Part shown: positions 36,184-50,163 of the stretch, one piece after another
Numbering within the stretch: the stretch's first letter is position 1
Layout of the letters: every line of letters starts with the position of its first letter
Virus record (IMG/VR): IMGVR_UViG_2802428822_000002
Location: 1-64,000 of that record
DNA: 64,000 bases
Source: a virus
Taxonomy: Duplodnaviria; Caudoviricetes
Direction: 5' to 3' (one strand)
Made by a program: the position numbers and the translations under genes
The notes under the pieces: model-generated
Told to the model about the DNA's origin: nothing
Databases searched by the model: none
The model's input: only the letters and a program-made list of their open reading frames with translations

Positions 36184-36224
36184 GTCGATCTCCCCTGCGG
36201 CCACGATTGGCTTGCCCTGTTATG

Positions 36225-36644
36225 TCAGGCGAAGCGCCCTGTGTAAACTGTGCCTGACTTTGCGGTTGCGATAGCTTCCCTGATGTCGGCCTCTCGCGCT
36301 TTCTTTGCCTCTCCGACGAATGTCTCGCTATTGGGAATAGCAACAATCGCTGCCTTCAGCGACTTGGCATCGTCACGAGTGAATTCGGATCTTGCCATCG
36401 GCTTGACGACGATATCCAGCCATTCCTGCTTTATCTCGTCGAGTGTGAGGCTGCGATCGTCCAAATAGCGCTTGCTGGCGAAGTCTCGAAAATCTTCCAG
36501 CTTCCGCCTGAGGTAAATTTCGTGCGCTGCGACAGCGTAGGGAGCGATCGCGCCAGACCTTTGGTGATACAGCGCGATCTGGCGGATCCTGCGGCGATAT
36601 CGCACGTCGGCAAGCCATTCGCGAATTGCGGAAGTGATTTTCAT
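36225..36644 (-). CDS. hypothetical protein
   Basis: 139 aa, ATGA-coupled. Confidence 0.7.
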   Translation of the reverse strand: MKITSAIREWLADVRYRRRIRQIALYHQRSGAIAPYAVAAHEIYLRRKLEDFRDFASKRYLDDRSLTLDEIKQEWLDIVVKPMARSEFTRDDAKSLKAAIVAIPNSETFVGEAKKAREADIREAIATAKSGTVYTGRFA

Positions 36645-36922
36645 CCGATCGTTCCCTCGTCGACAAATCGCTGCAGGTGAGGGAGCAGCTCGCGGACCAT
36701 GTCACGCGTCAGATGCATGCGTGTGTTGGCTACGTATCCTTCAGGCATCTCGACCGGCTGCCAGCTTTGGCCGGGTACGAGAACCTGTGGATTGGCTTTA
36801 TTGCAGCCAAGCCATATTGCCTCCTCATTGGCGAGACTGCTTTCCTGGAGGCTGCATTCCACGCCGTTACGGTCGGTGAATTCGATGCGGCCAAAACCGC
36901 GGTTGGTGAATTCTATCTTCAT
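36641..36922 (-). CDS. conserved hypothetical phage protein
   Basis: TNRGF..F.D..G..CSLQESSLA..IWLG..RMHL motif. Confidence 0.8.
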   Translation of the reverse strand: MKIEFTNRGFGRIEFTDRNGVECSLQESSLANEEAIWLGCNKANPQVLVPGQSWQPVEMPEGYVANTRMHLTRDMVRELLPHLQRFVDEGTIG

Positions 36923-36944
36923 TTCCTGGGTTCCTTTTAATTCC

Positions 36945-38528
36945 TCAGTAGTGGCTGACTGGGCGGCCGCTCTTGTAGACCTTCAAAAAGACCGTGTTGA
37001 CGTAAGTTCCGGACTCGGCGAATGAACCTGGTGGAAGATCGAAGAAACGCCCCTTCATCTTATTGATTACGAGATCACGGAACGCGGCGCTCTTCTTGTC
37101 CTCGCGGAACTCCACGCCTGCCGACATGATGGCCACGAGCGTTCCGTTGTCCTTCAGGAACTTCAATGCGTGGTGGACGTGATCGATATCTCTCAGCATA
37201 TCGAACGGAGGGTTCATCACCACGTAATCGTAGAGGCCAGTCGTCGTCGGCGAGAGCGTCAGAAAGTCCTGATTGTAGACTCGCCGGTAGACGCCTTCCG
37301 CCTTCAAGCCGTCGGCAAGGTGAGGCTGAAGCTCGACGCATTCGACGGCGTGATCATAGCGGTATTCGTGCTCATACCGCGCGCGGCCGCCGGACCCCCC
37401 ATCGAGCTCCTCAATCGAGCGCAGGCAGCGGCGCGCCAGCTGGCCTGTGCCAGCGGACGGCTCAAGAATGCGCATCTGCGGCTCATCGCGCTTGCGTAGC
37501 AGCGAAACCTGGCGGAAAACCTCGTCAACCGTCTTGTCTGGTGTCGGGAAAAAGCCGAAACGCTTAGCAGGCGTGACAGCCTTGCTCTGCAACGGATCTT
37601 CCTCTGCCTGGCCGCCGTCAGGCAGAACCTCGCCGTAATAGAAAGCGAGCGCCTTGTTGACGTCCTTCACCAAATCCTTGCGGATCATCCAAAGATGCGC
37701 GTTGCCGTTCTTGAACACGCGGATCTTGAAATATGGCGTCTCAACCTCGCACTGAGCCGGACGATTGAAACCAAGACGGATAGCGTCGATCGATCCGATG
37801 GCGCCTGCATAAGTGGCACGTGGAGGCTTCTTGCCGTCCATGATGGTGAAGACGCGCTCGATATCGATCAGCGTATCGCGCGCCGTGTTGCCGCGTCCGC
37901 TTCCCCAATTCCAGCCGCCGCTGTCGGTGAAAGCATAGGTGAGGATGATGCGGGCGCCGATCTTGAAACCGTCATGGCTCTTGAAGCGGCGATCTAGTTT
38001 CGAAAAAGCGTTGGCGATGCCGCGTAGCCAAATCGTGCCGGCGTCCGCCATGAACTGGTCAAGCGTTGCATTCAGATTTTCGACGGTGACGGGCGGCATT
38101 CCTGCATCGATCTCATCCTGATTAATGATTGCGCCCGTGGTGTAATCGCGCCTCTCAGGAACATAGGCCATCTGCTTGCGTAGCTTGTTCTTCGCCTCGA
38201 TGTCCATCAGCGCTTCAAGTTCGGTGCGCTCGATCAGATACGCCCAGGTCTTCAACTGCATGATGCGTCGCGCCGCGCGCATGTAATCCTCGCGCTCCGG
38301 AAGCTGGAGAGCATGAGCGAAAGCCTTGATTTCATTGATGTGATTGCTGGTGTAGCCGTTGCGGTCAAGCGTCGGGGAAATGGTGCGTTCGATCGCGTTC
38401 GCAGCGCATAGCGCCTGCTGAGCTATTTCCATCTTCGCATAAGCGTCTGCGTAAAGTTCAATCGTCTTGTCGTGCGCTGCGACGATTGCTTCGATGTTCG
38501 GGCGGACTGCGATCTGGTTCAATTTCAA
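36945..38528 (-). CDS. DUF4942-domain SAM-dependent (N6-adenine-type) DNA methyltransferase
   Basis: FKNGNAH, FFPTP, LEPSAGTG, MNPPF. Confidence 0.88.
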   Translation of the reverse strand: MKLNQIAVRPNIEAIVAAHDKTIELYADAYAKMEIAQQALCAANAIERTISPTLDRNGYTSNHINEIKAFAHALQLPEREDYMRAARRIMQLKTWAYLIERTELEALMDIEAKNKLRKQMAYVPERRDYTTGAIINQDEIDAGMPPVTVENLNATLDQFMADAGTIWLRGIANAFSKLDRRFKSHDGFKIGARIILTYAFTDSGGWNWGSGRGNTARDTLIDIERVFTIMDGKKPPRATYAGAIGSIDAIRLGFNRPAQCEVETPYFKIRVFKNGNAHLWMIRKDLVKDVNKALAFYYGEVLPDGGQAEEDPLQSKAVTPAKRFGFFPTPDKTVDEVFRQVSLLRKRDEPQMRILEPSAGTGQLARRCLRSIEELDGGSGGRARYEHEYRYDHAVECVELQPHLADGLKAEGVYRRVYNQDFLTLSPTTTGLYDYVVMNPPFDMLRDIDHVHHALKFLKDNGTLVAIMSAGVEFREDKKSAAFRDLVINKMKGRFFDLPPGSFAESGTYVNTVFLKVYKSGRPVSHY

Positions 38529-38694
38529 TCTCCTTCAGTGCCACGATTGGCTGATCAGGCTTCCCAATCCACGCCGGCAGAGAACCGCCGCCATGGTTTC
38601 CATTTCCAGTAATTGCCCTTGAGATGGCACCACATCATCCAGAATGGGCCGATCTGGAATTCGTAGGCGGTTGCGCCTCGGAACCATATAATCT

Positions 38695-48901: not shown

Positions 48902-49291
48902 TCACGCGGCTTTGAAAGCTTGGCTCATGATTGCATCTGCCGCGCATTTGGCGCGGTATGCGTCCATAACGGCAGCTGGCCATTTCCGCTTGTCTGAGTA
49001 GCGATCGATGCTTTGCGCATTCAGCTGCCGCTGGAAATGATCGTCCGCGATCTGCGCATTCTCGCATGCGCTGGCCTTGTCGGTTGCCGCGTGCCAGATT
49101 GCGAACTTGTAGACGGCGGCGCGGTCGAATGTGCCTGAACCGGTCTTGAGATTGCGAAGGAAGATTGTTGCGCCCTTGCCAGCGCCTTGGATAGTCGCGA
49201 GGTAGGGAACGCCGACGCTCGCATATGATCCGTTAGGAACGCGGTCAAACACGATGATTGAACCGGACTCGGGAATATTGAGATTGCACAT
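48902..49291 (-). CDS. hypothetical protein
   Basis: Start MCNLNI after hairpin and GGAG. Confidence 0.7.
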   Translation of the reverse strand: MCNLNIPESGSIIVFDRVPNGSYASVGVPYLATIQGAGKGATIFLRNLKTGSGTFDRAAVYKFAIWHAATDKASACENAQIADDHFQRQLNAQSIDRYSDKRKWPAAVMDAYRAKCAADAIMSQAFKAA

Positions 49292-49553
49292 TGTCAGTCT
49301 CCAGTTGTGCCACGATTGGCGGTTTGGGAAACCGGCGAACAAGTCCGCCGGAAACCAAAGCCGTCATGCGGTTTCGGTTATTGTTGCCTCCGTTATTCCG
49401 TGCGCACGGTGGGCTAGCGCTATGATCGGTCCGCCATGGTGCGGGCGATATTTGTCAAAGAACTGAGGCAGCGCCTCGCATGCGGTATGTTTCGGAATGC
49501 TGGCTTGTCAGGCTGGCATTTCGATAAGGGCGGCTAGCGCCCTTGCCGAAAGG

Positions 49554-49874
49554 TCAGAGAACAACGTTGACGCAAACCAGTTCGCGCCAGTCATCGGGAT
49601 AAACAGCGCCCTTGAAGGCGTCCGGGCAGGTGTCGCCGATACCGACCACAAACACCTCGCCGCTGTTCGTAATGGCCTGAAGCTCGACATGCGGGTTGAT
49701 CGAGAGGAGAGCGGCCATAGCGAGGGCGCCGCATGCTGCCATGCCGAAGAAGTCCGCCTTGATCGCTTCCCGGCGAGTGGCGCGGGCCTTGCCGCAAGAG
49801 ACGTTGGCGTAAAAGCCAAAGGCCTTGACTGTCAGGATAGACATGCCGGACTTGGTACGGGTGAGCTTGAACAT
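49554..49874 (-). CDS. hypothetical protein
   Basis: Start MFKLTR after hairpin and GGAG. Confidence 0.68.
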   Translation of the reverse strand: MFKLTRTKSGMSILTVKAFGFYANVSCGKARATRREAIKADFFGMAACGALAMAALLSINPHVELQAITNSGEVFVVGIGDTCPDAFKGAVYPDDWRELVCVNVVL

Positions 49875-49967
49875 TGTATCGGTCTCCGAGGGTGCCACGA
49901 TTGGCGGGTTGAAGCTGGCGACTGGATAGCGGCCCGTAGGCCGCCACCTAGGCGTCAGGGGCGGCCC

Positions 49968-50123
49968 TCAGGCCACCGCTACGATTTGACGACGGTAAGC
50001 ACGTGCGGTTTGGCGATTGTATTCCGCCCGGTCAGCATCACCTTCGCTGTCGTACTTAGCGGCGCGGCGCTCATGGTAAGCCGCAAGGCGTTCGTTCTGT
50101 TCGTTGCGTTCGGTGGCGGTCAT
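49968..50123 (-). CDS. first gene of early leftward operon (51 aa)
   Basis: MTATERNEQ; promoter, hairpin and GGAG upstream. Confidence 0.68.
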   Translation of the reverse strand: MTATERNEQNERLAAYHERRAAKYDSEGDADRAEYNRQTARAYRRQIVAVA

Positions 50124-50163
50124 TGGGTCGGTCTCCGTTGCGATCACGATTGATCTGACTACC

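Follow-up and report, generated by a model that had tools for sequence, protein, structure and literature searches.

Repeated start-associated signals have been known in phages since 2011 without a known function, and the one described here, a small hairpin that lies just before the Shine-Dalgarno (SD) sequence of 15 genes in a 64,000-nucleotide stretch of phage DNA (the window; positions 1 to 64,000 of IMG/VR record IMGVR_UViG_2802428822_000002), is set apart by a clear RNA structure. In phage lambda small RNA hairpins (boxB) near the 5' end of the early operon are read sequence-specifically by a phage protein, N, and the nut sites, two per genome, are paired with a boxA and are not tied to SDs. 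In Cluster K mycobacteriophages the start-associated sequence (SAS) has been described as an unstructured, asymmetric 13-bp consensus, GGGATAGGAGCCC, which is placed 3-7 bp before the start codon and includes the SD, and the extended start-associated sequence (ESAS) as 17-bp imperfect inverted repeats which look like DNA sites and for which the authors found no base-pairing support (Pope et al. 2011). SAS and ESAS occur in 11-19 copies per genome, in one orientation, in the non-structural half and before only a subset of genes, and their function was still unverified in 2025. The PeSLs (promoter-early stem-loops) of T4-type phages are short regulatory cassettes between non-essential genes and consist of a sigma70 promoter and a terminator stem-loop (PMC2839356). 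In another report, the helix-turn-helix proteins Aca2 and Aca1 (Aca, anti-CRISPR-associated) bind hairpins in 5' untranslated regions, and such motifs are also predicted between genes within operons; Aca2 is an autoregulator encoded at the end of anti-CRISPR operons, and it blocks ribosome binding (PMC13551039). A description of the present motif was not found in the literature searched or in Rfam, supplementary files in which motifs may be listed, above all those of PMC13551039, lying outside the search.

The element is a real, conserved RNA hairpin leader, and in a family of temperate Hyphomicrobiales siphophages it heads the independently translated cistrons of a single long accessory operon. 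The preliminary description of the window had claimed 15 such hairpins between 36200 and 50155, and all of them are present on the minus strand; seven of its coordinates were exact (36200, 41810, 39845, 43452, 47977, 48453/48846 and 50142) and eight were too low by 2 nt, the corrections including 38538, 42759, 43813 and 46605 to 38540, 42761, 43814/5 and 46607 and also 47519, 49307 and 49892 to 47521, 49309 and 49894. When the whole 101,397-bp genome was scanned for the plain hairpin, 47 matches to CAANNGTG were found, only 16 of which have a perfect stem of at least 4 bp; fifteen of the 16 are confined to one strand and to a stretch of 14 kb (36200-50155), and all fifteen are followed by GGAG and a start codon, as had been described. 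The sixteenth (52503) has no SD. By itself the 8-mer CAANNGTG shows no enrichment in the window (37 matches compared to 28.6 +/- 5.4 in shuffles, with 10 of 100 shuffles reaching 37); the signal is the combination of stem, strand, clustering and GGAG, and not the 8-mer alone. In the alignment of the 15 copies the consensus unit is longer than had been described and reads nnnnCnGCCAATCGTGGCACnAnnGGAGATCGA, followed by 3-6 nt and the start codon, and C9, A10, A11, G14, T15, G16, the GGAG and one later A are invariant. The whole leader, about 35 nt long, is made up of a C-rich flank, a hairpin with 4-5 bp in its stem and 4 nt in its loop, A(C/A)N, a spacer of 3-5 nt, GGAGAYYGA and the start codon. 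GGAGNYYRA, the extended SD context, precedes 14 of 24 operon genes compared to 1 of 32, 0 of 20 and 2 of 59 in three other gene arms. The hairpin is located 15-32 nt upstream of the start codons. Since the distance from the 3' end of the stem to the start codon is held at 15-20 nt while that from the upstream stop codon to the stem varies from 3 to 474 nt, the element belongs to the downstream gene. In the gene map made in this analysis the operon consists of 27 genes on the minus strand, and all eight genes that follow their neighbor with gaps of 6 nt or less lack the hairpin, which agrees with what had been stated for stop/start-coupled genes; among the 19 genes with gaps of at least 22 nt the hairpin is found in 15, variants in two and nothing in two.

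When 73 distinct leader sequences were aligned (alignment A3), it was found that the two loop-proximal pairs, A-U and C-G, never vary, that the third pair is C-G in 51, G-C in 12 and U-A in 10 sequences, and that the fourth is G-C in 64, A-U in six, C-G in one, U-A in one and unpaired in one. In this alignment 99.7% of the cells are paired compared to about 27% after a shift of the partners by one column, 30 of the changes are double-sided, and the covariation score was reached by none of 500 shuffles. As the alignment had been fitted to a model, the orthologous site of one leader was also read straight from the DNA. This is leader 8 (46587-46618, hairpin 46607-46618, minus strand), which precedes the gene for a MoxR-type AAA ATPase at 45537-46586, and across the relatives its stem reads GCCA/TGGC, GTCA/TGAC, TGCA/TGCA, CGCA/TGCG and GGCA/TGCC. 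The claim that the outer stem bases change in compensating pairs is therefore well founded. At the same site in three relatives (L124, L146 and L208) the closing A-U is replaced by G.U, and a fourth G.U closing pair occurs at L208:3216. Because a G.U pair on the sense strand is a C.A on the other strand, sense-strand RNA is favoured, though a DNA hairpin on that strand would be compatible with these sequences too. Among 143 distinct instances 125 have a perfect 4-bp stem and a 4-nt loop and the rest are mostly of a 3-bp CGCA...TGCA type; the conserved flanks are a C before the stem and, after it, an A or a fifth G-C pair, and next to the SD the flanks are G-poor. The loop-proximal pairs and the flanks are conserved even in relatives whose ATPase is only 42-49% identical to that of the window, and the element is under purifying selection. 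The invariance that had been claimed for CAANNGTG holds in the window phage and its two closest relatives but not in the other clades, where the form is CA-NNNA-TG and the last loop base is usually A (ATCA, ATTA) and rarely C or T. Like SAS and ESAS, the element occurs in many copies, in one orientation, before non-structural genes only and adjoining start codons, which is a likeness of behaviour and not membership; its consensus shares only GGAG with the SAS, host phylum and sequence being unrelated, and unlike in ESAS there are here 4-5 bp stems with compensatory changes and G.U pairs. The earlier comparison with the mycobacteriophage signals, analogous but structural, was thus apt.

The source record is a single 101,397-bp IMG/VR provirus, of which the window is the first 64 kb, and it encodes a large terminase, a portal, a major head protein, a 1282-aa tape measure, tail fibres and replication genes, a set of structural and replication genes from which we take it to be a temperate siphovirus-type phage. 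It has no near relatives among GenBank phages by megablast or blastn, and tblastn against the same phages with the ATPase and the terminase gave identities all below 40%; the closest homologue of the ATPase, 84% identical, is that of Rhizobium lusitanum. A covariance model (R1) was built from the 15 window copies and run over whole records, and a second model (R2) was built from its matches. Both models include the SD, because of which the strand bias and the SD and start-codon counts of their matches are partly circular, and the unbiased counts are those of plain hairpin scans without the SD in the query, in which an SD follows 15 of the 16 hairpins of the genome, 15 of 16 in the relative L196 and 14 of 16 in the relative L116. 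With R1 the window's own genome gave the 15 copies, a loose variant (E=0.04) and three weak matches (E >0.2), a 113-kb provirus (G001) gave 15 matches, and the 7.8-Mb genome of R. lusitanum gave 19, the strong ones all in C77:99135-114388 on one strand with nothing below E=0.3 elsewhere in that genome; two more distant viral records gave 7 and 11 matches, and those at E <0.5 were clustered on one strand. In each of these five records there was only one cluster of strong matches, on one strand. Over 96 sources (1.64 Mb), chosen by alignment-based searches for encoding an ATPase homologue, all 82 R1 matches were on the gene strand, and R2 gave 87 matches in 15 of 79 viral loci (87 of 87 on the gene strand) and 52 in 9 of 79 genome loci (52 of 52), the latter from Devosia, Mesorhizobium, Anderseniella, Rhizobium, Hoeflea, Pseudochrobactrum, Brucella and Ancylobacter records. 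The 66 loci L210-L275, mostly gammaproteobacterial, gave no match to the model. The element is thus restricted to the matching operon of related Hyphomicrobiales prophages and is always on the gene strand, which is the outcome of the covariance-model scan of genome and relatives that the preliminary description had envisaged. A search with a 44-nt leader query returned only single chance matches inside mycobacteriophage genes, an exact 14-mer scan of viral contigs gave a single match per contig except for L054 (on the L116 contig), and a single-protein search for related loci gave nothing.

The 143 instances come from 21 loci, the window included, and those counted by locus are the 125 whose hairpin is perfect; for the tallies of flanks and loops and of upstream open reading frames (ORFs), leaders of identical sequence were counted once. 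The 150 motif-led ORFs fall into 56 families, 31 of them singletons (duplicates L199, L203, L204, L205 and L209 left out), and the motif precedes each of five core genes (dnaN and the genes for the DUF3150-like protein, the ATPase, the methyltransferase and a 188-aa family) in 11-15 loci. It follows that the leader is ancient where it stands before core genes and is at the same time portable. In a relative that has no CA-type motif (L122; L165 has the same 13 sites) there are 13 gene-strand copies of a different hairpin, GGA-AUNG-UCC, at L122 6772-17915, with covarying stems of 3-9 bp that include G.U pairs, and 8-12 nt further on come GAGGAA and a start codon, which is the same layout. Four other relatives (L201, L202, L117 and L128) have no mini-hairpins but have fixed SD boxes of their own before many genes; the box is C(T)GAAAGGA in L201, L202 and L117, often after an intrinsic terminator, and GAAAGGATCAAA in L128, and GC hairpins whose loop is GGCAAC are also present in L117. 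In operons of this kind each lineage seems, as a rule, to have a leader box of its own.

The reading which we put forward tentatively, as quite possible, is that the hairpin is an operator in a modular translation leader and is read by a phage-encoded protein. The preliminary description had named an RNA-level recognition element among its suggestions, and covariation together with the fixed spacing of 15-20 nt to the start codon makes this the best reading. A 30S subunit covers roughly -35 to +19 of the message, and the hairpin is therefore inside the covered stretch. A protein bound to it could block or help initiation at every independently started cistron and thereby exert operon-wide control; such a phage protein would tune the translation of all the motif-led cistrons together, most likely by repression as feedback. 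The leader is identical before unrelated genes and therefore doubles as a joint at which relatives have exchanged cassettes. The structure, the strand, the spacing, the restriction to one operon and the conservation with compensatory changes are observed, and by analogy the element works most like an Aca-type RNA operator, of which it may be called only a candidate member. As in the Aca systems, a small conserved mRNA hairpin is placed beside the ribosome-binding site in a phage accessory operon, some copies being intergenic within the operon, and a gene for a protein with a predicted helix-turn-helix, the candidate reader, ends the window operon and co-occurs with the motif. Unlike in the Aca systems there are up to 15 copies per operon and not one or two, the candidate protein carries an extra N-terminal domain and is not Aca by sequence, and no matching DNA operator was seen by eye.

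This candidate reader, P0121 (177 aa, 35650-36183, minus strand), is the product of the last operon gene, present in single copy and itself motif-led, and would act like Aca2 on the mRNA hairpins of anti-CRISPR operons. Predicted structures give it a weakly double-stranded-RNA-binding-domain-like N-domain and a C-terminal XRE helix-turn-helix. When the surroundings of the motif (+/-10 kb) were compared, the P0121 family was found in 8 further loci among 18 motif-bearing ones and in none of 26 motif-less loci, and among the window operon genes only P0121 tracks the motif beyond the nearest relatives. In whole records exactly one full-length match was found in 9 of 10 motif-bearing records, the tenth being a fragmented metagenome-assembled genome, and in 0 of 10 motif-less records, in two of which the N-domain alone was matched, and weakly (E 7e-6 and 3e-4). 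L122, the relative with the other hairpin, is one of these two, and its gene at 17940-18299 encodes the N-domain only, is motif-led as the last of the 13 sites and is late in the operon. No family for P0121 was found in Pfam, PHROGs or NCBIfam. In its AlphaFold model (pLDDT 83) the helix-turn-helix is closest to SO3848, HigA2, Aca10 and Aca1 (Z 8.0-7.6, the last three at 7.6-7.8 with Aca10 at 7.7 and Aca1 at 7.6), Aca2 being further off at Z 6.0, and Foldseek aligned it to Aca1 with a target-normalised TM-score of 0.69 and 28% identity over 61 columns at an E of only 0.02. The search of P0121 against PDB sequences returned no Aca entry, so it is not an Aca family member by sequence. The absence of the element from the rest of the 7.8-Mb host genome and the different hairpin of L122 argue for a phage-lineage-specific reader and not a general host factor, and the models and the co-occurrence are suggestive of P0121 as the best candidate for it.

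Several findings weigh against this reading. A stem of 3-5 bp is weak by itself. Single copies form the hairpin in their minimum-energy structure with a stability no better than that of shuffles (z -0.7 to +1.3), and the evidence for the structure is, as judged from the alignments, covariation and not stability. The helix-turn-helix matches are generic XRE folds below the trust level of the tool (Z under 8), and Foldseek returned nothing at E <= 0.001 for the P0121 model. When the N-domain was folded alone (pLDDT 72) its match list was dominated by double-stranded-RNA-binding domains, at Z 3.6-6.0 and again below the trust level, and Foldseek gave nothing for it at E <= 0.001. The motif-bearing phages belong to related lineages, in which any gene peculiar to the lineage would accompany the motif, so that common descent confounds the association of P0121 with it, and because L122 has hairpins with the N-domain only, the helix-turn-helix cannot be the universal reader. 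Finally, no operator that resembles the hairpin was seen by eye in the promoter DNA, unlike with Aca2, and the repeats around the promoter do not look like it.

A rather unlikely explanation is that the element is a processing or stability signal, the polycistronic RNA being cut in the spacer upstream of each hairpin so that the hairpin caps the new 5' end and, together with the strong SD, protects the unit behind it against decay that depends on the 5' end. Hairpins at the 5' terminus are known as RNA stabilisers, and leader 1 (50124-50155, minus strand; GATCA-ATCG-TGATC at 50142-50155, then GGAG), which precedes the 51-aa gene at 49968-50123, would occupy just such a position: its stem begins 8 nt past the predicted -10 and about 0-5 nt from the predicted transcription start of a sigma70-like promoter, TTGACA-N16-TATCTT (50164-50191, minus strand), which heads the operon. 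This promoter is a consensus match only; it is the best sigma70-like site of the region and is conserved together with leader 1 in L116 and L196, and if it is real the primary transcript has the hairpin of leader 1 at its 5' end. None of the 14 internal copies is accompanied by a promoter-like site, and the total of such sites is at chance level (9 compared to 7.8 expected). A second repeated element lies directly after stop codons and upstream of the mini-hairpin in three gaps (49500-49553, 48860-48901 and 48470-48520, minus strand). It is a longer hairpin with imperfect pairing, CCTTTCG...(GC stem)...CGAAA, and has TGCCAG behind it; it may be a terminator-like or 3'-end-protecting structure. 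Where a gap has a large GC hairpin behind the stop codon and the mini-hairpin further on, as several gaps do, both new ends would be protected, and since the coupled genes lack the element the hairpin units would be the processing units. However, a protective hairpin needs no fixed sequence, and here the loop-proximal pairs and flanks persist at 42-49% ATPase identity; stability does not require the tight spacing to the start codon, no nuclease candidate was found among the operon genes in Pfam, PHROGs and NCBIfam, and the Rfam scan of 35000-56500 gave no ribozyme family match.

It is less probable that the leader is an insulator that works without any factor, keeping the SD free of upstream sequence or providing a ribosome standby site so that any cassette is well translated. 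The 56 unrelated gene families among the motif-led ORFs and the G-poor flanks beside the SD fit such an insulator, as does the lack of a proven reader, P0121 being a candidate. What it leaves unexplained are the conserved CA/UG pairs, the loop preferences and the different fixed hairpin of L122, and a hairpin sequence that is specific to the lineage argues for a lineage-specific reader.

Very unlikely is an element at the DNA level, either a non-template or single-stranded DNA hairpin for a recombinase or a transcription factor, or a duplex repressor site like the stoperators, which are the repressor sites of Cluster A mycobacteriophages. In its favour are the near-palindrome of leader 1 just downstream of the -10 and the way in which relatives differ in gene order at leader joints. 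When the operon was compared by blastn with two close relatives, 41 internal homology ends were found and 13 of them were within the 15 leader zones of 53 nt, compared to a mean of 2.25 by random placement, and 13 was reached in 0 of 10,000 permutations. Neither of the two breakpoint comparisons is independent of the other, breaks are to be expected at gene borders anyway, and equal-sized zones before 12 motif-less gene starts took up 5 of the 41, so that the signal is in part only that of gene borders. In L116 the DUF5983 gene and the 72/88-aa pair have changed places, and in L196 there are 2.4 kb of extra genes bounded by leaders. The leader is like the PeSLs in being a conserved repeated cassette that marks the joints of module shuffling between relatives, but unlike the PeSLs it has no promoter at its internal copies, its hairpin is too small to terminate and the unit is a translation leader. 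A duplex protein site predicts no compensatory stem changes, on the opposite strand each of the four G.U pairs would read as a C.A mismatch, and no recombinase was found in or beside the operon in Pfam, PHROGs and NCBIfam. Of the single-stranded DNA cassette-exchange site suggested earlier, the coincidence of breakpoints with the element is thus real and the mechanism is not upheld.

Very unlikely as well is repeated nut-like antitermination, in which a small arginine-rich phage protein on each hairpin would let the polymerase read through terminator-like hairpins between the cassettes: the hairpin is close to boxB in size and, as in lambda, is near the 5' end of a temperate-phage operon, small basic proteins are encoded early in the operon and there are GC hairpins in several gaps, but the 15 sites, unlike the lambda nut sites, are each locked to an SD and start codon and are absent before coupled genes, neither of which antitermination needs, the 15-copy alignment has no conserved block like the boxA consensus, and the basic proteins are present in at most 3 of the 18 motif-bearing loci. 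Other candidates were tried and rejected. An upstream ORF or extension from an RTG inside the hairpin runs for at least 30 codons in 58 of 125 instances and stops after 6-8 codons in 34, the rest being scattered; pairing with the 16S rRNA of R. lusitanum is limited to matches of 6-7 nt, which were judged to be chance; as a sigma54 promoter the TGGCAC resembles a -24 box, but by eye there is no TTGC at the -12 spacing; and an RNase P minihelix is disfavoured since only 35 of 125 instances have ACC as their 3' flank. An antisense RNA from the 53.4-kb region was also rejected, the 10-nt complement at 53408-53417 being without a counterpart in L116 and L196. When the region 35000-56500 was searched with Rfam 15 (cmscan, E <= 1), the only matches were a tRNA-like one at 54759-54848 and a weak tmRNA fragment, and none was on the leaders.

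The remaining leaders, all on the minus strand, follow leader 1 downstream. Leader 2 (49875-49905) has GCCA-ATCG-TGGC at 49894-49905 and then GGAG before a 106-aa gene, leader 3 (49292-49320, hairpin 49309-49320) precedes a 129-aa gene, and leader 4 (48831-48857), with GTCA-ACTG-TGAC at 48846-48857, precedes a 93-aa arginine-rich gene. Leader 5 (48433-48466; GGTCA-ATCG-TGACC at 48453-48466) and leader 6 (47960-47990; GGCCA-ATGG-TGGCC at 47977-47990) stand before genes of 72 aa and 56 aa, and leader 7 (47505-47532; GCCA-ATAG-TGGC at 47521-47532) before the 291-aa DUF3150-like gene. Beyond the ATPase gene come leader 9 (43796-43827; TGCCA-AGTG-TGGCA at 43814-43827), leader 10 (43434-43463; GGCA-ATTG-TGCC at 43452-43463) and leader 11 (42743-42772; hairpin 42761-42772), before genes of 106 aa, 103 aa and 72 aa, respectively. 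Leader 12 (41792-41823; GATCA-ATTG-TGATC at 41810-41823) precedes the second dnaN (40430-41791); the genome has two of these sliding clamp genes, the other at 11017-12126, and the motif-led one has an N-terminal extension of about 80 aa. Leader 13 (39826-39858; GAGCA-ACCG-TGCTC at 39845-39858) precedes a 376-aa gene, leader 14 (38523-38551; hairpin 38540-38551) the gene for a DUF4942 and N6-methyltransferase protein (36945-38522, TTG start), and leader 15 (36184-36211; hairpin 36200-36211) the P0121 gene, which has a GTG start. The loose variant (42215-42257) has a GCCA/TGGC stem with an 11-nt loop and AGGAG and precedes the DUF5983 gene. Another small hairpin, CGCC-CTTGA-GGCG (47744-47788, found by eye), with a C-rich 5' flank, CAAC and GGAGA, precedes the 60-aa basic gene, and its layout is the same as that of the 15 leaders with a different stem sequence.

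That the operon genes are early is our inference from their position beside the sigma70-like promoter, and the small operon proteins had no match in Pfam, PHROGs or NCBIfam. Two of those encoded early in the operon are very basic, the 93-aa protein (48549-48830), with 13 Arg and an Arg-rich stretch at its N-terminus, and the 60-aa protein (47561-47743), with 11 Arg and an Arg/Lys-rich C-terminus; they are possible nucleic-acid binders and are confined to the closest relatives. Inside the operon 506 nt (43796-44301) are without a called minus-strand gene and hold a 24-codon ORF behind a strong AGGAGG and no hairpin, the last ~300 nt being conserved in L116 and L196, and in the 262-nt intergenic gap at 49292-49553, where no gene was called, there are several GC hairpins. 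Two genes, at 52479-52802 (minus) and 50868-51857 (plus), occupy the 2.7 kb that separate the operon promoter from a pair of divergent promoters (~52850), and their products are a BrnA-antitoxin-like ribbon-helix-helix protein without a recognisable BrnT partner and an HNH endonuclease. Near the divergent promoters there is a 4-bp hairpin, CGCA-AGAG-TGCG (52496-52507, minus), and a motif-like piece, CCCCCCCCAATCGTGG, is found at 53408-53422 (minus) inside a presumed non-coding RNA region; both are outside the operon and have no SD, and no counterparts of them were seen in L116 or L196. The tRNA-like match at 54759-54848 (plus) scores 38.5 bits, above the gathering score of the Rfam tRNA family, and ARAGORN found no tRNA in the whole window.

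A wider proposal, which we hold to be doubtful though worth stating, is that of a plug-in leader: any gene that lands behind the hairpin and its SD would be translatable at once and would come under one RNA-hairpin-reading phage regulator (double-stranded-RNA-binding-domain-like plus helix-turn-helix), with different lineages using different pairs of hairpin and reader, the CA-type here and GGA-AUNG-UCC in L122. The 143 instances with their natural compensatory and G.U variants, the sister family of L122 and a single candidate reader make this a directly testable question. In alphaproteobacterial prophages the leader is also of practical use as a marker of accessory gene arrays, which may serve counter-defence. 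If the idea of a reader is true, the recently found binding of mRNA hairpins by Aca2 and Aca1 would be extended from a single site in an operon to a translational switch for the operon as a whole, and it would explain how phages keep freshly acquired cassettes both expressed and controlled. If true, the plug-in leader would be the RNA-level counterpart of the shared expression platform of the integron, with operon-wide translational feedback.

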